A model generated the notes under the pieces. The model was not told the DNA's origin, searched no databases, and worked only from the letters and a program-made list of their open reading frames with translations. The position numbers and the translations under genes were made by a program. Below, piece after piece: positions 26,086-40,012 of a stretch of DNA of 64,000 bases (the stretch's first letter is position 1; the number at the start of each line of letters is the position of its first letter). This DNA is from FCB group bacterium (lineage in GTDB: Bacteria > Zixibacteria > MSB-5A5 > GN15 > JAAZOE01): contig JAAEQF010000118.1 in assembly GCA_024231695.1 (NCBI GenBank), positions 1,086-65,085 on the forward strand, written 5' to 3'.

Positions 26086-26088
26086 GGT

Positions 26089-26604
26089 TTGGCAGAAACT
26101 ATCGCTATGCACGATGTATCCGACAATAACCCGGAAACACGTTTCATCTGCGATGATAATCTCGGAAAACTGGCCCGTTATCTTCGCGCCTGTGGATTCG
26201 ATACCTATTTCGATGACCATATCAGCGACAGTGATTTGATTACCATTGCCCTTGATGAAAACCGCCACATCCTTACTCGCGACCACAAATTGACCGAACG
26301 CACGCTGGTGCGGAAATATTTTCAGATTGAAGACGATAATTGGATGGATCAGCTGAGAGCCGTAATCAGCTATTATGAACTCAGAGTTTCTAAAAAGAAT
26401 ATATTTACCCGCTGTTTGGAAGATAACGTGTTAATCGAAACCGTATTAAAGCATAATATTAAAACTTTGGTGTATCCGTATATATACGAGAAGCATACTG
26501 GATTCAAACAATGTCCGCAATGCAAGCGAGTATTCTGGGCGGGCACTCATACCAGGGCGATTATCGAACGCCTAACCCTCGGTGGTATCAAGATATTAGA
26601 TTAA
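26089..26604 (+). CDS. Mut7-C RNase domain (DUF82) protein
   Basis: FICDDNLGKLARYLRACGFDT and C-terminal zinc-ribbon-like CPQCKRVFWAGTH. The true start may be the ATG at 26107. Confidence 0.7.
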   Translation: MAETIAMHDVSDNNPETRFICDDNLGKLARYLRACGFDTYFDDHISDSDLITIALDENRHILTRDHKLTERTLVRKYFQIEDDNWMDQLRAVISYYELRVSKKNIFTRCLEDNVLIETVLKHNIKTLVYPYIYEKHTGFKQCPQCKRVFWAGTHTRAIIERLTLGGIKILD

Positions 26605-26614
26605 TGTTCATGGC

Positions 26615-27466
26615 TCAGACCTCGGAACCAATATCCTTGACCGGTGGTTTGTATAAATATTCGAGAATCACTCGGCGGTCTTTCCCCTCGCCTTCGATCC
26701 GTTTGATATGAAGACTGACGCTATAGCCGTCCTCGGTTTCCATAATTATCCGAAGGTCAGATTTCAGCTTCAACCTTTCATAATGCGAGCCCACGGATTT
26801 ATATTTGTCCAGGCCATCTCCGACAATACCTGCAGCCACCATAAATATTTTCGATACCCTGTTGACCGGGCTCAGCCTCGAGGGCGAACATAGATAATCG
26901 ATCCCGTCTTTATGATAAAAATACAGGTCATTTTCCAGAGCATCGCTTTTGCAGTAATTGTCCTTAACGAAACTGAATCCGGCCTGATCGCCCGAGTAGG
27001 ATGTGGCCAGTTCGATCTCTCCCTGAGGATAGCAGACCAGTTCGATCTCGTTGGTCGGCAAAGAGAGACTTTTATCGTTGTAAACGGCCCGCATATGGAC
27101 ATAATAGCGGGTGGCGTTGGCAACGTTTTTGATCTCGAATGTTTCCCGACGAGCCGATCCTTCAGGATCACCGGGATAAACTTCGGGATTATGGGGCTGG
27201 ATTGACGAAGGTAAATCGCGGCCGGGATATTCTTTGGCCAACGGTCGCGGTGAAACATAAAAATTGAATCCGCGCATAATTCTGGTTCCGCTGCATCCCG
27301 GGTTATAGGCAACAATCGCCCGGCCGTTGCCGATGGTTTCTATTATCAGACCGCGCGGTTGACAGCGGACACTTTCGTCTCCACCACCGGTCGGCGGTCC
27401 ACAGGAGATTAAAAGGAAAATCGATGAAAATAGTAAAAGTCCGAGTCGCAGATAGTTCTTGGTCAT
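26615..27466 (-). CDS. Hypothetical lipoprotein
   Basis: MTKNYLRLGLLLFSSIFLLISCG lipobox. No domain recognised. Confidence 0.5.
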   Translation of the reverse strand: MTKNYLRLGLLLFSSIFLLISCGPPTGGGDESVRCQPRGLIIETIGNGRAIVAYNPGCSGTRIMRGFNFYVSPRPLAKEYPGRDLPSSIQPHNPEVYPGDPEGSARRETFEIKNVANATRYYVHMRAVYNDKSLSLPTNEIELVCYPQGEIELATSYSGDQAGFSFVKDNYCKSDALENDLYFYHKDGIDYLCSPSRLSPVNRVSKIFMVAAGIVGDGLDKYKSVGSHYERLKLKSDLRIIMETEDGYSVSLHIKRIEGEGKDRRVILEYLYKPPVKDIGSEV

Positions 27467-27558
27467 CCGTTCGAGTCCTTCAATGCCGATAATGATCGGG
27501 GCAAATTGTCTTTTATACTTTGTACGCGCGAAACTCCGCCGGGATCGTTACCGGAGAT

Positions 27559-28326
27559 TTAATCAATCGTTCGGGCTTCGGGACCGGTGTATTCGAAATT
27601 TCTATTTCCAAGTTGGCGCATCGGTCGCTGAGTGGTCATCTCTTCATAAGTATGAGCGATCAATCCCGGGACGCGGGAAATCATGAAGAAACCTTTGCCC
27701 AGCCGCCAGTCGAAGCCCATATCGGAAATAACGGCGGCAATAGCGCCGTCAACATTGATCGGTAATCTGCGGCCACTGGCTTTTTCCAGTTCCGCTTCGA
27801 TAGCCCGGGCCAACTCAGTATGGCGGCCCGAGTAATCGAGCGTGGCTGCAATTTCAAACAGCTTGACCGTACGCGGATCGGTTTTATGCAGGCGATGGCC
27901 GAAACCGGGCATTCGCTTTTTAGCCGCGCGCATATCGGCGACCAGCTGGGCGGCCAGGTCCTCGACCGAACCCTCCTTGAGGGCCAGTTCCTGAATTATC
28001 CGAGCCGATTGCTCAATCGCACCACCGTGCGTATCGCCGATCACCAGCACTCCGCCGGCGACGGCGGCATTGAGGGAATTCCCGCCAGACATGACCGTCC
28101 GCGCACCCAAAACCGATGGCGGTGTGGCCCCGTGATCGATAGAGGAAACCAGAATGGCCTCCATCATCCGAGCCTGTTTTTCATCGGGTAATTCTCCGCG
28201 CAAAATCAAAAAGATCGCCTGAGCGAAAGATAACTTATCCATCATTTCGACGATATCATATCCGCGAACCCGGATTTTTCCGGGACCGATTTCGGTTATA
28301 CTGGTTTGCCATTTTTCTTCACTCAT
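27559..28326 (-). CDS. Citryl-CoA lyase-like protein (short citrate-synthase-fold enzyme)
   Basis: 255 aa, which is only the catalytic C-terminal part of the citrate synthase fold. Signature GFGHRLHKTDPR. Size and layout resemble the Hydrogenobacter-type citryl-CoA lyase as I recall it. Confidence 0.65.
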   Translation of the reverse strand: MSEEKWQTSITEIGPGKIRVRGYDIVEMMDKLSFAQAIFLILRGELPDEKQARMMEAILVSSIDHGATPPSVLGARTVMSGGNSLNAAVAGGVLVIGDTHGGAIEQSARIIQELALKEGSVEDLAAQLVADMRAAKKRMPGFGHRLHKTDPRTVKLFEIAATLDYSGRHTELARAIEAELEKASGRRLPINVDGAIAAVISDMGFDWRLGKGFFMISRVPGLIAHTYEEMTTQRPMRQLGNRNFEYTGPEARTID

Positions 28327-29150
28327 TTTCTGATTACCCTCATGTCTTCTATTGTATCGTTTTCAACCGTCCCGTCCGGATCGGCGCATTGCCCACGGGC
28401 GAAATCGAGCCAGTTTGTTTCGAATTCATCTATCGGAAGCTGGAAAATAGTTTCAATCGACTTTTGCCAATCAACCGATGATTTCCATAACATGTACAGG
28501 CGCGGAGTGCCGTAATTGAACATGATAAAGCCACACAATGAGGCCGCCTCGGCCCGTCTGGTGGAAAAGTGCAGGGAGTCGAGTTTGACGTTATCACCCA
28601 GATCGAGCAGGCGGGTTAGCTGTCCGGAGTTATTTAGACGATTGGCCTTATCGTGGTAATTGAGGCCGGAGAAGTCTAGTAAATGAGGTACTCCCTCGTT
28701 CAGCACTTCGAAATCCCCCGGTTTGATACCGTTTTGTCCCAAGAGGAATTTAGTCAGCTGATAACCGTAGGGATAAAGGCCGCCCCAGTGAATCGAATTT
28801 TCTGTGGAAAAAGGTATTTTTTGATCACCCAGCATTTCAATTGTTTCCGGTCCGGGAGTGTAAACATACAGATCTATTGTCTCCTTAGGCATCGGAAATT
28901 CGAGTATGCTGCACAGTTCTTTCAGGAATCGATCATATCCCTGACCCAACTCGGCCTGACGTTCCAGCCAGGACGATTGCCGCGAGAAATGGAGATTGAA
29001 ATGAGTGGAACTATACGTTGCCCAATCGGCATATTTATCGGTATTGACCTGTGGTTCATCCGCGCCGCAGGATATCATCAGAAAACATAAAATCGCCAAC
29101 GCCACACTGGCCGGACCCGTTTTGCCCGAAAACCATTTGCCTGTCTTCAT
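28323..29150 (-). CDS. Hypothetical lipoprotein
   Basis: Internal Met start. MKTGKWFSGKTGPASVALAILCFLMISCG has a lipobox. Its stop overlaps the start of the citryl-CoA-lyase-like gene (ATGA). Confidence 0.5.
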   Translation of the reverse strand: MKTGKWFSGKTGPASVALAILCFLMISCGADEPQVNTDKYADWATYSSTHFNLHFSRQSSWLERQAELGQGYDRFLKELCSILEFPMPKETIDLYVYTPGPETIEMLGDQKIPFSTENSIHWGGLYPYGYQLTKFLLGQNGIKPGDFEVLNEGVPHLLDFSGLNYHDKANRLNNSGQLTRLLDLGDNVKLDSLHFSTRRAEAASLCGFIMFNYGTPRLYMLWKSSVDWQKSIETIFQLPIDEFETNWLDFARGQCADPDGTVENDTIEDMRVIRK

Positions 29151-29256
29151 TTGCAATTTCCTATCCTCCCTGGCAAAATCATTCAATAATTATTTAAACC
29201 GCTAATGTAATCGCTTTTGATCGCCGCGTCAACCCTCTCTCCAGTGGGCTCCGACC

Positions 29257-29293
29257 AAAAACAGCAGGCCGGTGGCGCTTGGCGCCACCGGCC
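29257..29293 (-). terminator. Rho-independent terminator ending the OFOR/NuoEF-like operon
   Basis: Perfect 12-bp stem GGCCGGTGGCGC-TTG-GCGCCACCGGCC (29267-29293). On the minus strand it is followed by TGCTGTTTTTGG. Confidence 0.7.
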
Positions 29294-29332
29294 TTTAATT
29301 TGCAGGACATTCAAGCAATAAAGATCATGCCT

Positions 29333-29740
29333 TTATGCAATTCTTTTATAAACCAATGCCTTAGTAGGACAAAACCGGGCGCATGCCGGACTACCGCCGC
29401 ACAGGTCACATTTGACTACCTCGTCATGAACCTCGTCGATCAGCGAACAACCGAACGGGCAGGCAGCCACGCAAGCTTCGCATTTGACACATCTTTCCGT
29501 ATCCAGATCGATCGCCCCGGTTTCTTCATTACGTTTGAGTGCGTCAAATTTACATGATCGGACGCAGGCCGCGTCATCGCATTGCAGACAGGCGATGGGA
29601 ACATATTTGTCCGGCGAATAGGCAATCGGGTAGATACGACTGCGGCCGGGCTTTTTATCTTTGGTATGAGTAAAGGCGCAGGCCAGTTCACAGGTCCGGC
29701 AACCGGTACAAAGCGAAGGAATAACTTCAAATCTAAACAT
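29333..29740 (-). CDS. 4Fe-4S polyferredoxin (CooF/HycB-like)
   Basis: Four Cys clusters: CTGCRTCELAC, CLQCDDAACVRSC, CVKCEACVAACP, CDLCGGSPACARFCP. Confidence 0.8.
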   Translation of the reverse strand: MFRFEVIPSLCTGCRTCELACAFTHTKDKKPGRSRIYPIAYSPDKYVPIACLQCDDAACVRSCKFDALKRNEETGAIDLDTERCVKCEACVAACPFGCSLIDEVHDEVVKCDLCGGSPACARFCPTKALVYKRIA

Positions 29741-30516
29741 TACAGTGCCACCTCCTTCGCCTGATCGACGATCCCGCCCATTTTACGGGCCAAATCGGCT
29801 CGCTTGCAGTCGTCGCAAACCTCGAAGTATTCCGCCGGTATATCCCGGTCGGCGATCAAGTAATCGGCAAACTCGCGGGCGATAGTTTTCTTGCCGCATT
29901 CTTTGCAGGATATCAGTTCGAACGTCCGGCCCCAGATATGCCGCGTACCGTTTTCGTCATGCCACTCAATGACATTGGTGGGACAGATTTTGGCGCAACT
30001 CAGGCAGCCGATACAATCGGGTGGAGCCTCGCCGAAAGGCCCGGAAATCTTCTTATCGCGGCCGCGATTGACCGCCGCTATGGCGCTCTTACCGAGCACC
30101 TCACAAGCCCTCGTGCAGGCATAGCACATGATACAGTTGTCGGCGTCGGGCAGAGCCTCGTAACTGGTTTTGACAATACCGTATTCTTCGGCCATTTGCT
30201 GAATGACCTCCGATTGCGGACATCGAGCCAGATACAAATCGAGGATGGTTTTACGCACCTCCAGGACATCGCCCGAGTGCGTCGAGACAATCAGTCCTTC
30301 TTCCACCGGATAGAGGCAAGAGGTTACCAGCTTTTTCCAGCCGTCCCAATCCTCACGGGTAATTTCCACCATACAGAGCCGGCAGGAACCGCTCGGTTCG
30401 AGGGCTTCGTGGTCGCACAAGGCAGGTATATCGATCTGCTGACGGCGTATCGCCTTGATCAGCATCTCGCCCTTATGAGCCTTGACCACTTTTCCGTTTA
30501 TCGTAATATGTACCAT
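29740..30516 (-). CDS. 2Fe-2S/4Fe-4S subunit resembling the N-terminal FeS part of HydA/NuoG, with no catalytic domain
   Basis: N-terminal plant-type ferredoxin-like ITINGK...CDHEALEPSGSCRLCMVE. Then CIMCYACTRAC and CIGCLSCAKICP. Then a C-terminal CKECGK...CDDCKR Cys4. Only 258 aa. Confidence 0.75.
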   Translation of the reverse strand: MVHITINGKVVKAHKGEMLIKAIRRQQIDIPALCDHEALEPSGSCRLCMVEITREDWDGWKKLVTSCLYPVEEGLIVSTHSGDVLEVRKTILDLYLARCPQSEVIQQMAEEYGIVKTSYEALPDADNCIMCYACTRACEVLGKSAIAAVNRGRDKKISGPFGEAPPDCIGCLSCAKICPTNVIEWHDENGTRHIWGRTFELISCKECGKKTIAREFADYLIADRDIPAEYFEVCDDCKRADLARKMGGIVDQAKEVAL

Positions 30517-30527
30517 TATCCACCTAC

Positions 30528-32381
30528 TCAGCTAATCTCAATGGCGTCAAAAGTGCACACGGTATAACAGGAACCGCATTGCGTGCATTTATCCTGATCC
30601 AACACATGTATCTTTTTCTTCTCGCCGGTAATGGCCTCGGTCGGACAAGCTTTGATACAAGCCAGACAACCGGTGCATTCGTCGGTGATTTCGAATTTTA
30701 TTAAATTGCGACAAACCCCGCCCGGACATTTTTTGTCGCGCACGTGGGCCAGATATTCCTCACGGAAATATTGCAGCGTACTCAGGAAAGGATTCGGGCC
30801 CGATTGTCCCAGCCCGCAAAGCGATCCGACCTGAATCGATTTGGACAGTTTTTCCATCAAATCCAGATCGTCCTCGGTGGCCTCACCCTCGCAAACTTTG
30901 GAGCATAATTTATGAAGTTGATAAAGCCCTTCGCGACAGGGAACGCATTTGCCACAGGATTCCATTACCAGAAATTCGAGGAAATAGCGGGCCACGTCAA
31001 CCATGCAGGTATGATCGTCCATAATAACCATGCCGCCCGAACCCATCATCGAACCGGCTTCGGTCAAGGAATCGAAATCGCAGGCCAAATCCAGCTTATC
31101 GGCCGGCAGGCAACCGCCGGAGGGACCGCCGGTCTGTACCGCTTTAAATTCGCGTCCGCCGGGGATACCGCCGCCGATATCGAAAATGATTTCCCGGAGA
31201 GTAATCCCCATGGGGACTTCGACCAGCCCGGAATTTTTAATCTTCCCCGCTAATGAGAACACTTTGGTTCCCGAGCTTTTGGCTGTACCTATCGAGGAGA
31301 ACCAGTCGGCTCCCTTTTCGATGATCATTGGAACCGTGGCGAATGATTCGACATTGTTAAGAACGGTCGGTTTGTCGTGCAAGCCCTGGACAACAGAATG
31401 AATATATTTGGCTCGTGGTTCGCCGACTTCTCCGGCCACCGATTTCATCAGGGCCGATGATTCGCCGCAAACGAACGCTCCGCCGCCGCGATTGACCTGA
31501 ATATCGAAGCAGAAATCGGTACCGAGAATGTTATCACCCAACAGACCGTTTTCACGAGCATCTTCGATGGCCTTCTGCAGGTTGATTACGGCCATGGGGT
31601 ATTCTTCGCGAACGTATATGTAGCCTTTGGTCGAGCCAACAGCATAAGCACAGGTGATCATCCCTTCTAAAACCGAATGTGGATCGCTGCCCATCAGCGT
31701 TCGGTCCATAAAGGCCCCGGGATCGCCTTCGTCGCCGTTGCAGATGACATAACGAATATCGGCGTCGATTTTGGCACAGGTGGCCCATTTGCGTCCGGTC
31801 GGAAATCCGCCGCCGCCTCGACCGCGCAGGCCGGATTTGGAAACCTCGTCGATTACCTGCTGAGGAGTCATTTCGATTAACGCTTTGGCCAGACCCTGAT
31901 AGCCGCCCCGGGCGACATATTCGTTGATTTTGTTGGGGTCGATCAATCCGGCGTTGCGCAAAGCAATCCGCTGTTGCCGGGCGTAGAACGGAATCTGATT
32001 ATAATCGGCAATCCGCTTTTTGGTGTTGGCGTCTTTGTAGAGCAGACGCTCGATAATCTCGCCGTTTTCGATAGTTTTTTCAACGATATCGGGAATGTGA
32101 ATCTTTTTGACCTTGGTGTAAAAAGTGCCTTCCGGCTCCAATATCACCAGCGGCCCCAAAGCGCAGTATCCGTGACAGCCGGTTTTGGTAACCGTTTCAA
32201 CGGACACGTCGGTGATGTTTTTATCGGCCAGGACTTTCTTGAATTCCTCGTATACCTCGACCGCGCCATTGGCTCGGCAGGCCGTCCCGACACAGATCAA
32301 AATCCGGCGTTGACGGGCTTCAAATTCGGTTTTGCATTCCGTGCGCCACTTATTCAGTTGATCTATATTTTCAATACGCAT
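30528..32381 (-). CDS. NuoF-like NAD(P)H-binding flavoprotein subunit (HydB/HndC type)
   Basis: GLRGRGGGGFPTGRKW (FMN/NADH site) and ESCGKCVPCREG (N3 cluster). N-terminal thioredoxin-like 2Fe-2S (CVGTAC...GCHGYCALGP). Two C-terminal 4Fe-4S motifs (CTGCLACIKACP, CTQCGSCYTVC). Confidence 0.9.
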   Translation of the reverse strand: MRIENIDQLNKWRTECKTEFEARQRRILICVGTACRANGAVEVYEEFKKVLADKNITDVSVETVTKTGCHGYCALGPLVILEPEGTFYTKVKKIHIPDIVEKTIENGEIIERLLYKDANTKKRIADYNQIPFYARQQRIALRNAGLIDPNKINEYVARGGYQGLAKALIEMTPQQVIDEVSKSGLRGRGGGGFPTGRKWATCAKIDADIRYVICNGDEGDPGAFMDRTLMGSDPHSVLEGMITCAYAVGSTKGYIYVREEYPMAVINLQKAIEDARENGLLGDNILGTDFCFDIQVNRGGGAFVCGESSALMKSVAGEVGEPRAKYIHSVVQGLHDKPTVLNNVESFATVPMIIEKGADWFSSIGTAKSSGTKVFSLAGKIKNSGLVEVPMGITLREIIFDIGGGIPGGREFKAVQTGGPSGGCLPADKLDLACDFDSLTEAGSMMGSGGMVIMDDHTCMVDVARYFLEFLVMESCGKCVPCREGLYQLHKLCSKVCEGEATEDDLDLMEKLSKSIQVGSLCGLGQSGPNPFLSTLQYFREEYLAHVRDKKCPGGVCRNLIKFEITDECTGCLACIKACPTEAITGEKKKIHVLDQDKCTQCGSCYTVCTFDAIEIS

Positions 32382-32382
32382 A

Positions 32383-32838
32383 TCAATCCTTTTTCACCAG
32401 ACGCATGGCCTGATCGACGCGGACATTGCCATGATATTTTTCGTTGACCGTTATCACCGGAGCCATGGCGCAAACACCAACGCAGTTGACTACCTCGATG
32501 GTGAATTTCATATCCTCCGAGGTCTCCCCCGCTCGAATATTGAGTCCGGCTTCCAATTGCTCAAGAAGCAGACCGGCGCCCTTGATATGACAGGCTGTGC
32601 CTTTGCAGATGCGGATGATTTTCTCGCCTCGGGGGGTCAAGCTGAAAGCGTTGTAGAAGGTCGTAACATTGAAGACCTTGCTTAAGGGGACATTCAAAGC
32701 TTTGGCCGTTTCCACCAAAGCCTCGCACGGCAGATAGTGAAACTCGCGTTGAATATCCTGAAGGACGCTAATCAGCGCATCCGGTGTCTGAGGATTGCGT
32801 TCGATAACTTCGCGTATCCTGCTTAAATCATGATCCAT
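32383..32838 (-). CDS. NuoE-like 2Fe-2S subunit (HydC/HndA type)
   Basis: CKGTACHIKG...VNCVGVCAMAP thioredoxin-like 2Fe-2S motif. 151 aa. Confidence 0.9.
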   Translation of the reverse strand: MDHDLSRIREVIERNPQTPDALISVLQDIQREFHYLPCEALVETAKALNVPLSKVFNVTTFYNAFSLTPRGEKIIRICKGTACHIKGAGLLLEQLEAGLNIRAGETSEDMKFTIEVVNCVGVCAMAPVITVNEKYHGNVRVDQAMRLVKKD

Positions 32839-32848
32839 TCATTTACCT

Positions 32849-33400
32849 CTATGCGCTGACTTTTTCGATCAGCTTGCGGCCTTCCTCGAAAGCCCTGAAA
32901 TTTATATCCAGAAATTCTTTTTTCTTACCCATTTTCTCTTTGAGCATAATGCCCAGCGTTTCGAAAGAAACGATCCCGGTGGCCGCCACATAGGCCGCCA
33001 GCATGACCATGTTGGCCGCTTTGGGACTGCCGCACTCACGAGCGATATCGTTGGCCGGTACCAGAAACTCGGTGATGTCGCTGCGTTCAGATTTGATATC
33101 GATCAGGCTGCTGTTGATCAGAAGCAAGCCGTCTTTCCTGATCATGGCGCCGAACTTGTCCAGCGAAGGCCGGTTGAAAACGCAGGCCGCCAAGGGCATA
33201 TTGATAATCGGCGAACCGATCCGTTCGTCGGATATGACTACCGTGCAATTGGCCGTACCTCCACGCATTTCGGGGCCGTAGGACGGAATCCAGCAAACCT
33301 GTTTACCCTCTTCCATAGCCGTATAGGCCAGAAGCTGACCGGCCGTCATTACGCCTTGACCGCCGAATCCGGCAAATACTACTTCTCTCTGTCCCCCCAT
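32849..33400 (-). CDS. 2-oxoacid:ferredoxin oxidoreductase gamma subunit
   Basis: FAGFGGQGVMTAGQLLA...SYGPEMRGG pattern. Confidence 0.85.
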   Translation of the reverse strand: MGGQREVVFAGFGGQGVMTAGQLLAYTAMEEGKQVCWIPSYGPEMRGGTANCTVVISDERIGSPIINMPLAACVFNRPSLDKFGAMIRKDGLLLINSSLIDIKSERSDITEFLVPANDIARECGSPKAANMVMLAAYVAATGIVSFETLGIMLKEKMGKKKEFLDINFRAFEEGRKLIEKVSA

Positions 33401-33401
33401 C

Positions 33402-34157
33402 TCAGACCTCCTCCGCTTCCGGGTCTTTATAAATTCCCAGCGGATAATACGGTTCCATATCGCTGGCCACCCAGTCGGTCGAATCGGCCGGCGATATACC
33501 CCAGTTGGTCGGACAGGTGGAAAGCACCTCGATCATGGTAAAACAGCGGTTTTCCTTCTGCAACCGGAAGGCCTTCTTGATAATCTTTTTGGCGTTGACG
33601 ATATGCATCGGAGTATGCACTGCGACCCGGGCGATAAAACTGGGCGTTTTCAAAGTTGACAAAAGTTCGGCCATCCGAATCGGATGTCCGGCCAGGTTCA
33701 CATCGCGGCCGGCCGGGCTTGTGGTGGTTCGTTGCTGAGGCATGGTCGTCGGAGCCATCTGTCCGCCGGTCATGCCGTAAATGGCATTATTAACGAAGAT
33801 GGTCGTGAACTTCTCACCCCGGTTGGCGGCATGGACAATTTCACCCATGCCGATCGAGGCCAGGTCGCCGTCGCCTTGATAGGTAAAAACGATCATATCC
33901 GGCCGGGTCCGCTTGAAACCGGTGGCCAGAGCCGGAGCCCGCCCATGAGCGGCCTCCATGAAATCGCAATTAAAATAGTTATAAGCCAACACCGAACAGC
34001 CCACCGGAGCCACACCGACGGTACGATCGCGAATTCCCAATTCATCCAGCGATTCGGCCACCAGCCGATGGATTACGCCGTGCGTACATCCCGGACAATA
34101 ATGGGTGATATTGTCACTCATGGCCGTGGGCCGTGAGAAAATTGTCGTGGTATCCAT
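33402..34157 (-). CDS. 2-oxoacid:ferredoxin oxidoreductase beta (TPP-binding) subunit
   Basis: YCPGCTHG and TPP motif GDGDLASIGMGEIVHAANRGEKFTTIFVNNAIYGMTGGQ. Ends with a TGA stop. Confidence 0.9.
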   Translation of the reverse strand: MDTTTIFSRPTAMSDNITHYCPGCTHGVIHRLVAESLDELGIRDRTVGVAPVGCSVLAYNYFNCDFMEAAHGRAPALATGFKRTRPDMIVFTYQGDGDLASIGMGEIVHAANRGEKFTTIFVNNAIYGMTGGQMAPTTMPQQRTTTSPAGRDVNLAGHPIRMAELLSTLKTPSFIARVAVHTPMHIVNAKKIIKKAFRLQKENRCFTMIEVLSTCPTNWGISPADSTDWVASDMEPYYPLGIYKDPEAEEV

Positions 34158-34181
34158 CTTATCCTCGTTTTCTTTCGAAGA

Positions 34182-35255
34182 TCACTTTTTGGTTCCCAGA
34201 AGAGAACGCACTTTCTCCTTGACTTCGTCGGGCGTGGGCACGATGCCGCCGGTATGACCGAAAAACTCGATCGGCTTGATACTTTTGGTGCAACGTTCAA
34301 TATCCTCGACCATCTGCCCGGTGCTCATCTCGATAGTCAAAACTTTTTTGATATTACTTTTGGCCGCTTCGGTATAAATCTCTTTTTCCGGGAAAGGAAA
34401 CAGGGTAATCGGCCGGAATAGTCCGACGCTGATTCCCTCTTCCTCCAATTCGTCGATAGCCGTCTGGCAAATACGCGACATGGTGCCGTAAGAAGCGATC
34501 AGGATTTCGTTTCTATCAGAAACCTTGTACAGTTCGTAGCGGACTTCTTCGGCTCGTGCCTTTTTGTATTTTGCTTCCATAACCAGGCAATTGTCTTCCA
34601 GTTGCTGGGGATCGAGAAAAAGCGATTTGATCAAACGCGCTTTGCGGTCCTTCGCGCCGGTCAGGGCCCAATCCGATTTATCCGGATCGTTCTCGGCCCG
34701 ATATTCCTTAGGAAATTCGACCGACTCCATCATCTGCCCGATCATGCCGTCGCCGATGATCATCACCGGATTGAGGTATTTTTCGGCCAGATCAAAAGCG
34801 AGGATGGTCAGATCGACAGCCTCCTGCACCGAGGCCGGAGCCAGAACGAGTAAACGATAATCGCCGTGACCGCCACCCTTGACCGATTGGAAATAATCGG
34901 ACTGCGCCGGCAGAATACCACCCAGACCGGGGCCGCCGCGCATTATATTGAGCAAAACCACCGGCAAGTGAGCGCCGGCCATGTAAGATATCGCCTCCTG
35001 CATCAGACTTACGCCGGGGCTGGATGAAGTCGTAAAGACCCGCTTGCCGGTCGAGGCTGCTCCGAAAAGCATGTTGCCCACGGCCACTTCCGACTCGGCC
35101 TGGACAAAAACGCCATCGATCTCGGGAAGCCGCCAGCATAAATATTCGGCCACTTCACTCTGCGGGGTGATCGGGTAGGCAAAGTAATGTCGCGACCCGG
35201 CGGCTATTGCCGCTTCGCCAATCGCTTCGTTGCCTTTCATCAATTTTTTGGCCAT
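34182..35255 (-). CDS. 2-oxoacid:ferredoxin oxidoreductase alpha subunit
   Basis: MKGNEAIGEAAIAAG...FAYPITPQSE N-terminus is typical of Kor/Vor/Por alpha. 357 aa. Confidence 0.9.
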   Translation of the reverse strand: MAKKLMKGNEAIGEAAIAAGSRHYFAYPITPQSEVAEYLCWRLPEIDGVFVQAESEVAVGNMLFGAASTGKRVFTTSSSPGVSLMQEAISYMAGAHLPVVLLNIMRGGPGLGGILPAQSDYFQSVKGGGHGDYRLLVLAPASVQEAVDLTILAFDLAEKYLNPVMIIGDGMIGQMMESVEFPKEYRAENDPDKSDWALTGAKDRKARLIKSLFLDPQQLEDNCLVMEAKYKKARAEEVRYELYKVSDRNEILIASYGTMSRICQTAIDELEEEGISVGLFRPITLFPFPEKEIYTEAAKSNIKKVLTIEMSTGQMVEDIERCTKSIKPIEFFGHTGGIVPTPDEVKEKVRSLLGTKK

Positions 35256-35270
35256 TGCAGCTTTCCCTAA

Positions 35271-35507
35271 TTAATATTCGAACAGGGCATACCCTGTCCC
35301 ATGCGTATGTACTTCAATCGCCACATCCGGGCAGACAATAGCGCATATCCGGCAACCGATACATTTGGTCGGTTCCGCAAGCTGCGCCACTAAATATCCC
35401 TTGAGATTAATCTCTTTCGACATTTCCAAAATCTGCATCGGACAGGCCCTGACACAAAGTTCACAACCTTTGCAGTACGTCTTATTTATTTTAACACCGG
35501 GCATCAA
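35271..35507 (-). CDS. 2-oxoacid:ferredoxin oxidoreductase delta subunit (2x 4Fe-4S)
   Basis: CKGCELCVRACP and CIGCRICAIVCP. 78 aa. Confidence 0.85.
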   Translation of the reverse strand: MMPGVKINKTYCKGCELCVRACPMQILEMSKEINLKGYLVAQLAEPTKCIGCRICAIVCPDVAIEVHTHGTGYALFEY

Positions 35508-35527
35508 CTTGTCCTTTTCTTTCCTGA

Positions 35528-36259
35528 CTATTTTTCAGCCTGGTTTTCTTTTCTTTCCCATGGCTTGAGCATTGACCGCGACAACGGTAGAATCGGGCAG
35601 TCAAAACCGTCCGACTCAATCTGCTCAAGCAGACTATTCCTGACGCTGACAAAAGCCAGCGGCAATCCCGTCTCTTTGCTTATCTGACAGGCCAATTCAT
35701 AACCCTCGACAACCACAGCCATGTCGGTTTCATCAATCATGTGGCTGTTGGCCACCAATCCGGTGAAGCGTAATTTGGACGTTGCCTCAATCCGAGCCAT
35801 CGTCTGACGACACCCGGCCGCATCGGCGGTCTGAGGCCGGCGACTGTTTAGCACGGCCAGCATTTCATAACCACCGGCGCCGTCCAAAACCGCCGCCAGC
35901 GATCCCAGTGATTTGGCTCCCTGGGAATCACCACCGACATCAAGAATCAAACGCCCCTGCGGATGTTCGATAGCGCCTTTCACTTCCGGAAGTAAAATAG
36001 GCAAATCAGCATAAGTCTGCCCTCCCTGCGGAGCTACCACGCGAATACCGAGGGCTTCCATCTCCAAAATCGCCTCACGTGTACGAAAATACGGATTTAC
36101 GAGATCAAGATCAACTATTGTGAGTGGAGTTTCCTTGTCAGAAACCAGAAACTTGGCCAGATTGACCGATACTTCAGTTTTGCCACTGCCGAAACCGCCC
36201 ACTAAAATAATAATCTTTTGGGGAAATGTGGGGTAACGAATTTCGGCCTTCTCCATCAT
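35528..36259 (-). CDS. P-loop NTPase of unknown function, first gene of the operon
   Basis: Walker A-like GGFGSGKTE near the N-terminus and hydrophobic-strand-Asp VDLDLVNP. Family not recognised. Confidence 0.5.
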   Translation of the reverse strand: MMEKAEIRYPTFPQKIIILVGGFGSGKTEVSVNLAKFLVSDKETPLTIVDLDLVNPYFRTREAILEMEALGIRVVAPQGGQTYADLPILLPEVKGAIEHPQGRLILDVGGDSQGAKSLGSLAAVLDGAGGYEMLAVLNSRRPQTADAAGCRQTMARIEATSKLRFTGLVANSHMIDETDMAVVVEGYELACQISKETGLPLAFVSVRNSLLEQIESDGFDCPILPLSRSMLKPWERKENQAEK

Positions 36260-36603
36260 TTATCTCAACCAATCGTTGCTCAGCTCAGAACACGCCTGCC
36301 TTGCGCCAAAGCAATGATCCATCGGCACTTAGGCAGTCTTTTCCATCTCTGACAATATCCTAAAATCGACGCTCAAAGTCAAGCCGCATTGTGAAAAATA
36401 TCACTAATCTTCTCCTTTTCCGGCCACTCTCAATGGCTTATGGGATGAGGCTAATGCCTACTTTAAGTCATCTCTCGTAGTTATTGCACTACAACAACAT
36501 ACATGCGTCGCTCGCACAATAATACAGACTCTGTTCCGCATCTTGCCGATTATTGAGAGGGATTAGCCGGGATAATAAATAGATGTAATTAAAACCGAAG
36601 TTT

Positions 36604-37521
36604 TCAGCGATCGCGTGCCGGAAGCAGGTCTGGATTCGATTCTGCGAGTCGTTCCAGATGGGAAATTCCCATCGGGCCGATATAGGTTTCGGTTAGTGAA
36701 TAAACCGGGTCGGCCAGGGCTTGGTCGAGGTCAATGAAACTGTAACCGAGGGTTTGGATTTCTGTCAGCAGTTCGGTCAGAAAGTCGCCATTGATGCGAT
36801 TTGCATGTAAAAGGAGAATATGCTTGACCGAGTGGCCCAGGATTTCATCGGCCAGTTTTTCGGCTTCTTCCAATTGATCGACGATATGGTCCAGATATTC
36901 ATTGCCGATCTGGTCAAAGCGGACTGAATCATCGGACTGGTAAATTTTCTCATACTGCAGATTGAAAGCATAATCGTCGGTATCAACTGAGACATGAGCT
37001 ACACGATATTGCATTTCATTCAGGTATTCAGCAACTGCCTCTTTGGTTTTCAAGCTGTTACCGTAATGCAGATATGGATAACGGAAATACATTCTTTTCT
37101 GACCGGCCTTGACCAGCATATCCTCGATGGTCTTTACTCCGGCAATGATATCCTGAATATATAGCGACGGAGGAACCGTGTTGAGATCGGGATGTGAATT
37201 AGTATGGTATCCGATTATATGCCCTTTGGCCAGCCACGATTCGATCAAGTCAGGATCACCCTCGATATTGTTACCGATGACAAATCCGGCTGCCGGAGCG
37301 TTGAACTCCTCCAGCGCCCCCAGAATCCGATCGGTGATCATCAGCCGCTGAATGCGGTCATGGACTCGTACTACCGGCAGATCGTCGAAGGTGATGCAGA
37401 TTTGTTTGTTGGACTTTTTGGTTTTCTTTTTGGCCGGTTGATCCTGAGACCAGACGACTCCAACCAGAAGAAACAAGGCCAAAAGCAAGAAGGGTATTAT
37501 CGTTATCCGTTTCATATTCAA
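36604..37521 (-). CDS. Polysaccharide deacetylase (NodB homology) family protein
   Basis: Signal peptide, CITFDDLP (TFDD motif), HTNSHPD. Confidence 0.75.
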   Translation of the reverse strand: MNMKRITIIPFLLLALFLLVGVVWSQDQPAKKKTKKSNKQICITFDDLPVVRVHDRIQRLMITDRILGALEEFNAPAAGFVIGNNIEGDPDLIESWLAKGHIIGYHTNSHPDLNTVPPSLYIQDIIAGVKTIEDMLVKAGQKRMYFRYPYLHYGNSLKTKEAVAEYLNEMQYRVAHVSVDTDDYAFNLQYEKIYQSDDSVRFDQIGNEYLDHIVDQLEEAEKLADEILGHSVKHILLLHANRINGDFLTELLTEIQTLGYSFIDLDQALADPVYSLTETYIGPMGISHLERLAESNPDLLPARDR

Positions 37522-37647
37522 TTGTTAAGTCGTAGGGGCATGTTTGTCAATTAAAACAATATCCGGCTAATTAATTGGTTGAATTCTACCCAACTCTTAT
37601 CGTATAATTGTGCAATAAAGAGATTGTCCAGATGAGGTTAAATTGAA

Positions 37648-38487
37648 GTGCGGAGTATAGCGACGCGAATGTTTGTGAATATTTTAATAGCGGTAGCCCT
37701 GATCTATATCGTTATCCTCATTCTCGTCTATGCCCTGCAATCGAACATGGTTTTCTTCCCCTCCCGGAAACTCTATGCCACGCCGCAGGCGGCCGGTCTG
37801 GCTTTCGATAATGTCACTATTCAGACCGAAGACGGCGTTTCGATACACGGCTGGTTTGTCCCGGCCGATTCGGCCCGGGGCACGCTTTTATTTTGCCACG
37901 GCAATGCCGGGAATATTTCCAATCGGATCGAATCGATCGCCCAGTTCAATCGGTTGGGATTGAATGTTTTCATTTTTGATTATCGCGGGTATGGTCAAAG
38001 CGAAGGTAAAACGACAGAAGACGGCACCTATCTGGATGCTGACGCGGCCTGGCAGTATCTGACCTTAACGCGAGGAATTGAACCGCAACAGATTATCGTT
38101 TTCGGCCGATCTTTGGGTGGAGCCATCGCGGCTCAGCTGGCAACGCAAACAAATCCAAAAATCCTAATTGTGGAATCGGCTTTTACTTCCCTACCTGACG
38201 CCGGAGCCAAACATTATCCATTCCTGCCGGTCAGGTTGATGGCTCGATTTAAATTTAACACGAAAGAATATCTCACCCGGATCAATGTTCCGGTTTTGAT
38301 CATCCACAGCTCGGTCGATGACATCATCCCATTTGAATTCGGCCAAAGGCTATTTGAGGCAGCTCACGAACCGAAGCAGTTTCTGGAAATCAACGGCTCG
38401 CACAACGACGGTTACATGGTCTCGGCTGATCAGTATGAAGCCGGTGTAACCGCTTTTCTCGACACCTACCTTAAGCAGAAAAAATAA
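37648..38487 (+). CDS. Alpha/beta hydrolase
   Basis: N-terminal TM, HGNAGN, nucleophile elbow GRSLGG. C-terminal D and H candidates (SVDD, GSHND). Confidence 0.8.
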   Translation: MRSIATRMFVNILIAVALIYIVILILVYALQSNMVFFPSRKLYATPQAAGLAFDNVTIQTEDGVSIHGWFVPADSARGTLLFCHGNAGNISNRIESIAQFNRLGLNVFIFDYRGYGQSEGKTTEDGTYLDADAAWQYLTLTRGIEPQQIIVFGRSLGGAIAAQLATQTNPKILIVESAFTSLPDAGAKHYPFLPVRLMARFKFNTKEYLTRINVPVLIIHSSVDDIIPFEFGQRLFEAAHEPKQFLEINGSHNDGYMVSADQYEAGVTAFLDTYLKQKK

Positions 38488-38494
38488 TATTAAA

Positions 38495-40012
38495 TCAGGG
38501 CTGGGTCCTCGGGCGATAGAGGCGTGGTTCGAATTTCTGATAATGTTTCGCATTTAATGAGTGCATCATTTTATCGTATAACGATGATTCATAACTGCGC
38601 AATGGCTCCAACTGCCCATAACGGCTTTGAAGCGAGTCCAGATATAATTCCAGATCGCCGTCTTTTTGTGGATAAAGCACAAACAGATCAAAAGCGCCTG
38701 CCGCTTGATAGCGAGGCGGCAGACTATTATAAGTAGGCCAATCGCGAATATATAATCTCGTCGGCGGTTTAAATCCTGAGTAGCTTATCGGTATCCAGCG
38801 CCTCATGTCCGGCTGCACAAACATCACCCGTGGTTTGATCTCCATTCGTTCAATCCAAATCAACGGTTCAATCAGACCTTTATGGCCATAGGCCGTAGTG
38901 AAAGGTATTATAAGCAGAAGATTTATTATCAGGGAGATTCCGGCCAGCGAGAGGAAAAGTTTCCGGTTTTTCAGAATATACCCCTTTTCCTGGTAACGAT
39001 GCCATAAAGCCAGAGCCGTCAGTATAAACAGCGCCGGTATGATCGGGAGCATGAATCGTTCCTGCTGATTACTGTGCAGCATATGAAAGACGATGAAAGC
39101 CAGCGTACTGATTACCAGCAGGCGATGCCTTCGCCAAAAAGAGGGCAAAATGGACAAATAACCCAGGACCAACGAAAAAGGCGGAATGAAAAAGCCAAGA
39201 ATCACCAACATATAGACAAACGGCACGGTCACGTAGCGAGCGCCCAGACCGGTGTTAATCATTAGATTATTGATTGTCGAAGAAGCAAATCGGCCGACCA
39301 GAAAATAATCAATTATGCCGGAAAATAGAAGCATGCCCGCCACCGCGGCGGAATAATGAATTGCCGGTCTAATCGAGCGGTATTCATACCAGAGTATAAA
39401 CGGAATCGGTAAAGCCGCGAAAGCCAACTGAAAGCGGATCATCCAAGCCAGTCCGGTCAGCAGACCGGCCAGATAAAGCCGGGAGATTTGAGGTTCGTCG
39501 CGGTAACGATAGAAGAAATATAAGGCTCCAATCCAGATATTGCCTCCAACCATTTCGATCAGATTGCGCACGCCCAGAAACGGCATTCCGAAATGCAGGG
39601 CAACCATCAGACCGCCCAAAACGGCCCACCTGACTCTGCCGGTTTGCCTGCGCAGAATCTGATAAACAACCCATACCGGCAGAAGCGAAATCAGGGCATG
39701 TAGAAAACGGATAGTGTACATCATCTTATCAAGCGCGGTGATTCCAACCAGGGTATGGAGTTTCATCACCCCAAACAGAAACATGGTATAGAGAGGAAAG
39801 CGGCCGATGGTCGAGGCCGGATACTCTTTCCAGCTTAGCCCTCCATCGATGTTCCACAGGCCGTTTTGCAGCCAGAAATAGGCCACGTCCACGCTGTCAT
39901 AATGATCGTCGGAATGGATAAAGCCCTGGGAGAAAATTGCCGCCGTCAGGCGTAAAAGCAGGGCAACAATAATTACTGCGGCCAGAGGATGAGATTTTAT
40001 GTACCTGATCAT
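38495..40012 (-). CDS. GT-C fold membrane glycosyltransferase (GT22/PMT-like)
   Basis: 505 aa with more than 10 TM segments. Acidic loop motif after the first TM (IHSDDHYD). Confidence 0.65.
   Translation of the reverse strand: MIRYIKSHPLAAVIIVALLLRLTAAIFSQGFIHSDDHYDSVDVAYFWLQNGLWNIDGGLSWKEYPASTIGRFPLYTMFLFGVMKLHTLVGITALDKMMYTIRFLHALISLLPVWVVYQILRRQTGRVRWAVLGGLMVALHFGMPFLGVRNLIEMVGGNIWIGALYFFYRYRDEPQISRLYLAGLLTGLAWMIRFQLAFAALPIPFILWYEYRSIRPAIHYSAAVAGMLLFSGIIDYFLVGRFASSTINNLMINTGLGARYVTVPFVYMLVILGFFIPPFSLVLGYLSILPSFWRRHRLLVISTLAFIVFHMLHSNQQERFMLPIIPALFILTALALWHRYQEKGYILKNRKLFLSLAGISLIINLLLIIPFTTAYGHKGLIEPLIWIERMEIKPRVMFVQPDMRRWIPISYSGFKPPTRLYIRDWPTYNSLPPRYQAAGAFDLFVLYPQKDGDLELYLDSLQSRYGQLEPLRSYESSLYDKMMHSLNAKHYQKFEPRLYRPRTQP

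Follow-up and report, generated by a model that had tools for sequence, protein, structure and literature searches.

A nine-gene operon of a Zixibacteria genome that probably joins a 2-oxoacid:ferredoxin oxidoreductase to a Bfu-type NADH module

2-Oxoacid:ferredoxin oxidoreductases (OFORs) are gateway enzymes of anaerobic amino-acid, pyruvate and tricarboxylic acid (TCA) cycle metabolism, and are normally thought to use ferredoxin only. The DNA considered here is a stretch of 64,000 nucleotides (nt) from a bacterium of the FCB group placed in Zixibacteria (assembly GCA_024231695.1, contig JAAEQF010000118.1, positions 1,086 to 65,085), referred to below as the window. On its minus strand, at 29333-36259, the genes of a four-subunit OFOR are packed together with those of a NuoE/NuoF-like NADH module and of two further iron-sulphur proteins. 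What does an OFOR do in such company, and where do its electrons go? An earlier reading of the same DNA (hereafter the preliminary description) had proposed that the OFOR is the catalytic partner in a complex coupling 2-oxoacid conversion to NAD(P)(H). Our analysis points the same way, with support from synteny across several phyla, from the sequence hallmarks of bifurcating Bfu enzymes and from a BfuA subunit that lacks a catalytic domain. The operon probably encodes one multi-subunit, HydABC-like enzyme of the Bfu family, in which a VorB/Kor-like OFOR would serve as the third-substrate module.

The operon and its NADH module

The features of the operon are as follows, in the order of transcription:

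36354..36382, minus strand: promoter-like site (TTGACT, 17 nt, GATATT), a weak consensus match about 95 nt 5' of the first gene
35528..36259, minus strand: P-loop nucleoside triphosphatase (NTPase) of the SIMIBI class, 243 amino acids (aa)
35271..35507, minus strand: OFOR delta, 78 aa, 2x[4Fe-4S]
34182..35255, minus strand: OFOR alpha of the VorB family, 357 aa, POR_N and PFOR_II domains
33402..34157, minus strand: OFOR beta, 251 aa, thiamine pyrophosphate (TPP) site and proximal [4Fe-4S] cluster
32849..33400, minus strand: OFOR gamma, 183 aa, Pfam POR domain
32383..32838, minus strand: BfuC, NuoE/HydC-like [2Fe-2S] subunit, 151 aa
30528..32381, minus strand: BfuB, NuoF/HydB-like, with flavin mononucleotide (FMN) and NAD(H) site, 617 aa
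29740..30516, minus strand: BfuA, WorA-type, 258 aa, Fer2_4 and two 4Fe-4S motifs
29333..29740, minus strand: polyferredoxin of the WorS/AorA/HycB type, 135 aa, 4x[4Fe-4S], Fer4_11 (CooF/HybA-type)
29266..29294, minus strand: intrinsic terminator closing the operon, perfect 13-bp stem with 11 G-C pairs and a 3-nt loop

The nine open reading frames (ORFs) of the preliminary description were all recovered with identical coordinates. The gaps between successive genes are 20, 15, 24, 1, 10, 1, 11 and -1 nt, so that none exceeds 24 nt and the tight packing described earlier holds. Domains were called from Pfam and NCBIfam scans which, together with the Walker A motif of the first protein, bear out the identities proposed for the NTPase, the four OFOR subunits and the NuoE-like protein. 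The strong terminator reported at the end of the cluster is also real: its stem is followed directly, on the minus strand, by the T-run GCTGTTTTTG. Its position is, however, 29266-29294 and not 29257-29293, and it starts 39 nt past the last stop codon. Promoter-like consensus sites are frequent in the region (16 observed against 10.3 expected from shuffles), and an Rfam scan of positions 26000-40000 gave neither a riboswitch nor a leader RNA, with no hit in the 344-nt leader. The nine genes form a real operon. As the preliminary description had noted for the operon, a catalytic domain of a hydrogenase or formate dehydrogenase (FDH) was absent; Pfam found none in the cluster, its immediate neighbours or 20 of the other larger ORFs of the window, nor was a gene of the AOR family (WorL); outside the cluster the same scan returned housekeeping genes only.

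BfuB matches the B subunits of bifurcating enzymes of solved structure, namely NiFe-HydABCSL (7T2R_B), WorABCSL (9MQX_B) and HydABC (7Q4V_B and 8A6T_B), with 731-751 bits, as against only about 290-385 bits for complex I NuoF and the beta subunits of non-bifurcating FDHs, which cover just its central part. Besides the Pfam domains Complex1_51K and NADH_4Fe-4S, it has the two additional domains that had been assigned to it earlier. These are an N-terminal thioredoxin-like 2Fe-2S domain at residues 25-102 (ligands C30, C35, C69 and C73) and a C-terminal 2x[4Fe-4S] domain at residues 563-616 (C569/572/575/579 and C599/602/605/609). Cluster B1 is represented by C476, C479, C482 and C522. The B2 or zinc site was mapped onto the Acetomicrobium mobile numbering of Schut et al., in which C459, C497, H546, C552 and C557 correspond to C438, C476, H525, C531 and C536. 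Across 53 family members the cluster ligands of BfuB are 98-100% conserved, the exception being C497 (42%), at a fifth B2 position that varies throughout the Bfu family (PMC9304861).

The nucleotide-binding motifs agree with the ligands. GDEGDPGAFMDR (residues 216-227) and GGGAFVCGE (299-307) are of the bifurcating type, for which DEGDPGAFMDR and G(A/G)GAFVCGE have been reported around the NADH/FMN site, as opposed to DEGEPG(T/S)FKDR and GAGAY(I/V)CGE in non-bifurcating enzymes (Supplementary Figure 10, PMC9304861). According to Schut et al., non-bifurcating homologues are also devoid of clusters B2-B5 (PMC9304861). BfuC matches Pfam 2Fe-2S_thioredx with 155 bits, and among 56 sequences the ligands of its C1 cluster (C78, C83, C119 and C123) do not vary. 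Together, BfuB and BfuC carry all the sequence hallmarks by which Schut et al. (2022) define bifurcating Bfu enzymes. We take the NADH module to be a bona fide Bfu core, which would then be expected to bifurcate electrons.

BfuA, the polyferredoxin and the OFOR subunits

Bfu enzymes receive their third substrate through BfuA (Schut et al., PMC9304861). The 258-aa protein, previously described as equivalent to the N-terminal part of HydA or NuoG, does have a Fer2_4 and 4Fe-4S region resembling the N-terminus of HydA, NuoG and HoxU, and can now be called, more specifically, WorA-like. Its top sequence match in the PDB is 9MQX_A (WorA), over the full length (175 bits, 39% identity), whereas a look-up of identical protein sequences returned nothing. 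An AlphaFold2 model built with 40 homologues (mean predicted local distance difference test score, pLDDT, 89.8) superposes on the same chain in Foldseek with TM-scores of 0.86/0.89 and a root-mean-square deviation of 2.1 A over 244 columns; the next matches are N-terminal parts only of HydA, NuoG and FdhA. In the model a C-terminal helix of 23 residues (235-257) directly follows a zinc finger. This tail is kept across the family, and is absent from the BfuA of the Dehalococcoidia-type loci discussed below. The cysteines of the [2Fe-2S] cluster (34/45/48/67) and of two CxxCxxCxxxC motifs (128/131/134/138 and 168/171/174/178) are 100% conserved, those of the zinc finger (204/207/234/237) 66-82%. 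A catalytic domain was not found in BfuA by Pfam, and a motif for a His-ligated cluster is missing. In the Bfu classification, BfuA carries A1 and A2, and Type 2 adds A4 while lacking A3 and A5 (PMC9304861); one [2Fe-2S] and two [4Fe-4S] clusters without a His-ligated one make the window protein a Type 2 BfuA with A1, A2 and A4.

The gene that follows encodes a polyferredoxin, rightly called CooF-like before, which again resembles a Wor-type component: with 8C0Z_C (AorA) it reaches 105.5 bits and with 9MQX_E (WorS) 104 bits, its residues 6-131 aligning with 7-131 of the 152-residue WorS, and all 16 of its cysteines are 100% conserved in 50 sequences. In the cryo-electron microscopy structure of the Wor complex, WorS is docked by a C-terminal helix of WorA that is in turn supported by the zinc finger (Feng et al., 2025; PMC12318220). 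By analogy, a WorA-like BfuA next to a WorS-like polyferredoxin suggests a defined mode of docking between the two.

The top NCBIfam match of the polyferredoxin is the N-terminal domain of PadI (90 bits, aligning to residues 10-137 of the model). PadEFGHI is the NADH-dependent phenylglyoxylate dehydrogenase of Azoarcus evansii, and its NAD subunit is a GltD/NfnB-like flavoprotein, not a NuoEF-like one. It resembles the window cluster in that an OFOR is wired to a pyridine-nucleotide site via a CooF-like four-cluster module. This module is, however, fused to the Pad beta subunit (as the N-terminus of the NCBIfam PadI model), whereas it has its own gene in the window, and the Pad OFOR is of the Por/Vor class. 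A PadEFGHI-like reading would make the window enzyme a non-bifurcating, NAD(P)+-dependent 2-oxoacid dehydrogenase, with all electrons going to NAD(P)+ and the extra BfuB clusters serving a structural or regulatory role, and oxidation of a donor of about -500 mV by NAD+ is indeed exergonic without bifurcation (Table 1, PMC9304861). We nevertheless hold this to be decidedly improbable. The B2-B5 ligands, reported missing in non-bifurcating homologues, are strictly conserved in the 53 members except at the variable fifth B2 position, and a PadH/GltD-like NAD subunit was not found in the cluster by Pfam or NCBIfam. The window proteins also fall far under the cutoffs of the NCBIfam Pad models NF045762-NF045766 (PadG 75 bits, cutoff 700; PadI 41-90, cutoff 700; PadE 56, cutoff 300).

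The remaining subunits have the parts expected of a four-subunit alpha-beta-gamma-delta OFOR, namely a YPITP motif, a TPP motif, the beta cysteines, a gamma domain and a delta subunit with 2x[4Fe-4S]. OFOR alpha, with YPITP at residues 27-31, exceeds the cutoff of the NCBIfam VorB model NF005507 (517 bits, cutoff 399) and stays far under those of the Por, Ior and Oor models (PorA_Arch 106 bits, cutoff 550). OFOR beta combines Pfam TPP_enzyme_C with GDGD at 95-98, NN at 123-124 and four cysteines that are 100% conserved (C21, C24, C54 and C215), and reaches 73 bits on the PorB model (cutoff 405). OFOR gamma matches Pfam POR with 141 bits and passes TIGR02175 PorC_KorC (84.8, cutoff 81.1). OFOR delta, in which eight cysteines are 100% conserved in 66 sequences, is recognized by Fer4_7 and related Pfam models, and stays under the cutoffs of the NCBIfam OorD/OGOR_delta-like models.

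The hints as to the substrate diverge, the family model being VorB and the nearest solved structures 2-oxoglutarate enzymes. For alpha these structures are 1YD7, 8YS5 (alpha subunit of 2-oxoglutarate synthase) and 6N2N, a 2-oxoglutarate:ferredoxin oxidoreductase (OGOR, also KOR), with pyruvate:ferredoxin oxidoreductase (PFOR) 9BT4 a weak match; for beta they are 8YS5_C and 6N2N_B (KOR/OGOR beta), with PFOR beta at 33 bits. The described VorB and KOR/OGOR enzymes share with the window OFOR the YPITP motif, the TPP motif and the cluster ligands, and differ from it in having neither a linkage to Bfu genes nor a dedicated NTPase. As judged from these matches, the substrate is most likely a 2-oxoacid derived from branched-chain or other amino acids, or else 2-oxoglutarate, and not specifically pyruvate.

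Distribution and relatives of the cluster

One genome per GTDB species was scanned with BfuB and then, reciprocally, with OFOR alpha, and the nine proteins were scored at each locus by tblastn. In the resulting set of 85 unique loci, all with an OFOR alpha at least 50% identical to that of the window, bfuC and bfuB directly follow the OFOR genes in 55, another 17 (mostly Desulfobacterales) have the OFOR by itself although 2.5 kb or more of sequence is available downstream, and 13 are truncated. In 50 of the 85 the full set of nine is present in unchanged order (NTPase, then OFOR delta-alpha-beta-gamma, then BfuC-B-A and the polyferredoxin). A third scan, seeded with a BfuA from Holophagae, returned 32 loci, mostly from Acidobacteriota, of which 22 are complete (two of them repeating earlier contigs). 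Synteny, the first check proposed in the preliminary description, is thus conserved. The cluster is present in about 70 species-level genomes, all of them metagenome-assembled genomes (MAGs), from at least seven phylum-level groups. Going by the depositors' labels, the carriers are Zixibacteria, Ignavibacteria, Calditrichota, Acidobacteriota, Myxococcota, Planctomycetota, Delongbacteria and deltaproteobacterial MAGs, with Holophagae, Thermoanaerobaculia, Myxococcales, Bradymonadales, Planctomycetia, Phycisphaerae and Deltaproteobacteria also among the labels. The nearest relatives are Zixibacteria MAGs (BfuB 86% identical in locus L001), in keeping with the placement of the window in this group. 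The nine-gene arrangement is far beyond chance.

Two of the nine genes reveal by their distribution to which half of the cluster they belong. The polyferredoxin gene follows bfuA in 50 of the 51 loci that could be evaluated and is absent from the loci in which the OFOR has no Bfu genes; it travels with the Bfu genes and not with the OFOR. The NTPase gene, by contrast, precedes the OFOR genes in 77 of the 79 loci that could be judged, Bfu-less ones included, among them those of Desulfobacter vibrioformis, D. latus and D. curvatus; its evolutionary tie is with the OFOR and not with the Bfu module.

The NTPase itself matches neither a Pfam nor an NCBIfam family. Its Walker A motif GGFGSGKT (residues 21-28) and a DVGGD motif (107-111) are both invariant, and the best Foldseek matches of its AlphaFold2 model (pLDDT 87.9) are the G domains of SRP54 and FtsY. 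These matches are moderate (TM-score 0.5-0.57) and place the protein in the SIMIBI class without a close family. Most of its 4074 database homologues are without a name; in some sources they appear as 'cobalamin biosynthesis protein CbiA', and PF01656 matches a few of them weakly. A NifH-like or CooC-like role was considered and rejected, there being no invariant cysteine and only a generic SIMIBI fold match. Because the NTPase is strictly linked to this OFOR lineage, with or without Bfu genes, it is probably an accessory factor for OFOR maturation or assembly and not an electron carrier, a role that we assign with low confidence. Upstream of the Bfu-less NTPase-OFOR genes of Desulfobacterales, and on their strand, a gene for a radical-SAM protein of 460 aa recurs in six loci. 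In D. vibrioformis (L120:5784-8964) it is itself preceded by a gene for an ARMT1/DUF89-like protein (581 aa). In two Desulfobacteraceae loci (L140 and L149), genes for NuoE-like (36-38% identical) and BfuA-like (24-25%) proteins occur a few kb upstream of the Bfu-less NTPase-OFOR genes on the opposite strand, and may belong to an unrelated NuoEF-type complex.

The phylogenetic placement of BfuB, also proposed in the preliminary description, was carried out on 196 sequences with a neighbour-joining (NJ) tree. Fifty of the 57 OFOR-linked BfuBs, that of the window included, fall into one pure clade, and the other seven (myxobacterial or deltaproteobacterial) are nearer to the Dehalococcoidia-type enzymes. 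This tree, based on BLOSUM distances with midpoint rooting, has no support values and is indicative only, as is the NJ tree of OFOR alpha, so that the split of seven against 50 may be an artefact. In the OFOR alpha tree the Bfu-less enzymes form one Desulfobacterales clade of 15 members plus four singletons, nested among Bfu-linked ones. In the loci compared, the Bfu genes of the main BfuB clade sit only beside a VorB/Kor-like OFOR. That a hydrogenase or FDH gene had simply been lost or moved away was rejected, since about 70 genomes keep the arrangement and a hydrogenase is likewise missing beside the BfuBs of the nearest outgroup (L009-L011).

These outgroup loci have a further hydrogenase-less make-up of their own. 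In L009:9455-16919, and likewise in L010 and L011, BfuC and BfuB are fused into one protein of 798 aa. Their BfuA, at 1290 aa, also contains FlpD/MvhD, pyridine-nucleotide-disulfide oxidoreductase and BFD-like 2Fe-2S domains, and a DAO-family flavin adenine dinucleotide-dependent oxidoreductase follows. The third substrate of this type of Bfu enzyme might, judging from its domains, be an amine or an amino acid. A conserved gene set downstream of the nine-gene cluster was seen in 8-10 loci, namely L005 (13559-18702) and 7-9 others from Zixibacteria and Ignavibacteria, and is absent from the window. By eye, it consists of a STAS anti-anti-sigma factor, a HATPase anti-sigma kinase and a membrane phosphatase of about 755 aa of the PP2C/SpoIIE type, reminiscent of partner switching; after these come a NUDIX-like protein and a histidine kinase.

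In the window, the operon is followed just past its terminator by a separate transcription unit on the same strand (27559-29186). It consists of a gene of the citryl-CoA-lyase family (255 aa; NCBIfam NF004869, 326 bits, cutoff 212) that overlaps by 4 nt a 287-aa ORF without a family, lipoprotein-like by eye. Of about 55 loci with the OFOR-Bfu cluster, 24-25 have a gene of this family as a neighbour, in some downstream and in the same orientation, in others upstream and divergently oriented; this adjacency may point to a functional connection with acyl-CoA or TCA metabolism. The plus strand encodes, at a distance of about 8 kb, a 411-aa multi-haem cytochrome c (19980-21215; Pfam Multi-haem_cyto and Cytochrome_C554), which by its domains would indicate a respiratory or extracellular electron-transfer capacity of the organism. 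At the edge of the window (91-3660, minus strand), an ORF of 1189 aa is without a Pfam family at E <= 1e-5.

How does the cluster compare with what has been described? The preliminary description had assumed that in known complexes the NuoEF-like pair serves an H-cluster or a Mo/W domain. This picture is outdated, for several other types (Wor-, Nfn-, Bam-, Codh- and Por-Bfu) have since been described or predicted (PMC9304861). Among them, the "Por-Bfu" type predicted by Schut et al. in 2022 unites BfuABC with four Por subunits. Of the 1,558 sequences and 57 clades of that study it accounts for 12 sequences, which belong to Chloroflexi and Proteobacteria and fall into BfuB clades 35, 44 and 45; it is uncharacterised and has never been purified, the sole support for its prototype in Dehalococcoides mccartyi being uniform transcript levels (PMC9304861). 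Its BfuA has the zinc finger without the helix, and a WorS homologue is missing (Feng et al., 2025; PMC12318220). With a peptide from the supplement of PMC9304861 as query, two Dehalococcoidia-type loci were found among the matches listed (L163 and L166), both with the order porG-porD-porA-porB-bfuC-bfuB-bfuA and with neither the NTPase nor the polyferredoxin gene. NCBIfam identifies the L163 OFOR as a true Por (PorB 422, cutoff 405; gamma NF006321 228, cutoff 225), and the BfuA of this locus is 38% identical to that of the window, ends three residues past the second CxxC and is not followed by a polyferredoxin. Our comparison covers these Dehalococcoidia-type loci, the 'Proteobacteria' entries of Schut et al. 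(clades 35 and 44) lying outside it.

Both systems have four-subunit OFOR genes directly upstream of, and contiguous with, bfuC-bfuB-bfuA, a small Type 2 BfuA (A1, A2 and A4 plus zinc finger) with a BfuB/BfuC core, and the predicted logic of a 2-oxoacid as third substrate beside NAD(H) and ferredoxin. However, the window OFOR is VorB/Kor-like with the order delta-alpha-beta-gamma, whereas that of Por-Bfu is a true Por with the order gamma-delta-alpha-beta, the subunits being 24-32% identical. The window cluster has the WorS-like polyferredoxin and the C-terminal helix of BfuA, and L163 is without both. It also has the conserved NTPase gene, and most BfuBs of its type form a clade of their own. 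A different OFOR lineage combined with a Wor-type coupling device makes the window cluster a functional analogue of Por-Bfu and not a member of the Dehalococcoides type.

WorABCSL of A. mobile (9MQX; PMC12318220) has counterparts of three subunits: BfuA resembles WorA (39%), BfuB WorB (742 bits) and the polyferredoxin WorS (104 bits). In both systems a third substrate of low potential (about -500 mV or lower) would enter through a polyferredoxin into A4 of BfuA, a path that for the window we propose by analogy. The partner differs, however, being a TPP-dependent OFOR heterotetramer in the window and the tungstopterin protein WorL in A. mobile. Wor-Bfu has been shown experimentally to be a bifurcating aldehyde oxidoreductase, which oxidises its low-potential substrate only when NAD+ and ferredoxin are both present (PMC9304861, PMC12318220). 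With HydABC and HydABCSL (7P5H, 7Q4V, 8A6T and 7T2R) the window cluster shares the BfuB/BfuC core (664-751 bits) and all its ligands, including the His/Cys B2 (or Zn) site. It has, unlike them, neither an H-cluster nor an NiFe subunit, and its BfuA, which stops after the second [4Fe-4S] cluster, is without the His-ligated A3.

Electron path, direction and meaning for 2-oxoacid metabolism

From gene content, cofactor ligands, fold matches and synteny we infer a scheme for how such a complex might work. A 2-oxoacid would be oxidised with coenzyme A (CoA) at the TPP site of OFOR alpha/beta, and the electrons would pass over the three [4Fe-4S] clusters of the OFOR (in beta and delta) to the four clusters of the polyferredoxin, itself docked on the zinc finger and C-terminal helix of BfuA as WorS is on WorA. 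They would then run through A4, A2 and A1 of BfuA to B1 of BfuB and the FMN-FeS centre of BfuB/BfuC. At this centre the four electrons of two turnovers would be split, two yielding NADH and two reaching ferredoxin (Fd) via the C-terminal 2x[4Fe-4S] domain of BfuB. The overall reaction would be 2 R-CO-COO- + 2 CoA + NAD+ + 2 Fd(ox) -> 2 acyl-CoA + 2 CO2 + NADH + 2 Fd(red).

The preliminary description had allowed for both 2-oxoacid oxidation and reductive carboxylation; the former is now favoured and the latter appears thermodynamically less likely. The relevant potentials are about -500 mV for the 2-oxoacid couple, -280 to -320 mV for NAD and -420 to -500 mV for ferredoxin (Table 1, PMC9304861), from which a mixed NAD/Fd acceptor of about -390 mV is calculated. 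Compared with the near-equilibrium reaction on ferredoxin alone, oxidation with this acceptor would gain about 20 kJ per oxoacid, and the synthase direction would lose as much. Since sending half of the electrons to NAD+ makes a near-equilibrium OFOR reaction exergonic, the physiological direction is most likely the oxidation of the 2-oxoacid with joint reduction of NAD+ and ferredoxin. The enzyme would thus exert a catabolic pull, by which oxidation is kept going at low substrate or high product, and would provide NADH without Rnf.

The same numbers bear on the opposite proposal, that of an anabolic confurcating synthase in which NADH and reduced ferredoxin drive the reductive carboxylation of an acyl-CoA (such as isobutyryl-CoA or succinyl-CoA) for amino acids or the reductive TCA cycle. 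We consider it very unlikely: electrons from NADH would raise the donor to about -390 mV, which makes reaching the couple at about -500 mV some 20 kJ/mol worse per oxoacid than with ferredoxin alone. The VorB family, to which OFOR alpha is assigned by NCBIfam NF005507, is presumably named after the anabolic 2-oxoisovalerate enzyme of a methanogen (Methanothermobacter), and the citryl-CoA-lyase-family gene adjoins the cluster in the 24-25 loci mentioned; in the window, its gene pair is nonetheless a separate transcription unit beyond the terminator. In favour of synthesis it may also be said that Schut et al. propose for Por-Bfu the formation of pyruvate from NADH and ferredoxin (PMC9304861).

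A different alternative is that the operon co-transcribes two separate enzymes, a ferredoxin-dependent OFOR (with its NTPase) and a free BfuABC-polyferredoxin that would act as Fd:NAD+ oxidoreductase or transhydrogenase-like balancer, the two being linked by soluble ferredoxin. OFOR and NTPase do occur without Bfu genes in 17 genomes, the OFOR keeps a normal delta subunit, which is the usual ferredoxin-docking module, and gene linkage by itself is no proof of a complex. We find this arrangement unlikely all the same. The Bfu core needs a third substrate via BfuA (Schut et al., PMC9304861), whereas the BfuA of the window has no catalytic domain and, as its only partner, a wire-like polyferredoxin. 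The Bfu genes of the main clade keep company with the VorB/Kor-like OFOR only, and the 10-nt gap between the genes of OFOR gamma and bfuC contains no terminator. Moreover, a separate OFOR lineage, the true Por, is likewise contiguous with BfuCBA in the Dehalococcoidia-type loci. That two OFOR lineages have each been joined to BfuCBA suggests repeated selection for OFOR-Bfu coupling.

Several observations weigh against a single bifurcating enzyme with a Wor-like electron path. An OFOR that stands with its NTPase alone in those 17 genomes must be functional without Bfu, presumably using free ferredoxin, and the link in the window could then be soluble ferredoxin as well. The literature leaves unexplained why a donor of -500 mV should need bifurcation (PMC9304861). 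The substrate cannot be read from the name of the VorB family, given that VOR-like enzymes by sequence can prefer aromatic 2-oxoacids and that sequence-based VOR assignments mispredict specificity (PMC13290082). The zinc-finger cysteines of BfuA are lost in about one third of the family members, and an organism in culture with the full cluster was not found among about 100 loci. Finally, the analogy with the WorS nanowire is only partial for the polyferredoxin of the window. The C-terminal helix of WorS, about 20 residues long, stacks further WorS copies into a nanowire (Feng et al., 2025; PMC12318220), with a ratio of 3:1. The window protein, at 135 aa, ends four residues past its last aligned position and is without this helix, tails in its family extending from about 0 to about 25 residues beyond the conserved FCPxxAL motif. 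Lacking the WorS tail, the polyferredoxin is more likely a putative single 1:1 adaptor between the OFOR and BfuA than a nanowire.

The idea of an OFOR-Bfu enzyme has been in the literature since 2022 and is therefore not categorically new. Literature searches on the exact cluster retrieved only the Por-Bfu prediction and the WorABCSL paper, and where VOR and NuoEF are both named, in genome papers on Ignavibacterium and MBNT15, no connection is drawn between them. The combination of a VorB/Kor-type OFOR with a WorA helix and WorS-like adaptor and a SIMIBI NTPase, found in about 70 genomes, appears to be undescribed in the searchable literature. We put forward tentatively, as a proposal that could well prove wrong, that it represents a distinct class of bifurcating 2-oxoacid oxidoreductase, probably independent of the Por-Bfu of Dehalococcoides. 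It would be built from a VorB/Kor OFOR, a WorABC-like core and a single WorS-like adaptor, with a SIMIBI NTPase dedicated to the OFOR, and would provide uncultured lineages, among them Zixibacteria, Ignavibacteria, Calditrichota, Acidobacteriota and Myxococcota, with a major one-step route to NADH and reduced ferredoxin from 2-oxoacids that derive from amino acids or the TCA cycle.

No form of OFOR-Bfu enzyme has so far been purified, and the build found in the window offers a compact and well-conserved redox target of eight subunits. If the reading is correct, the docking device of the WorA helix and WorS would have been reused with a partner that does not contain tungsten, and the enzyme would provide a second natural test, after Wor-Bfu, of bifurcation with donors of very low potential. 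The conserved NTPase would be a candidate for the first dedicated accessory factor of an OFOR. An OFOR hard-wired to a bifurcating module would also change models of redox balance, as regards how much NADH and Fd(red) each oxoacid yields, whether Rnf is needed and how reversible the reaction is, in lineages that include several abundant, uncultured groups of sediment and groundwater.

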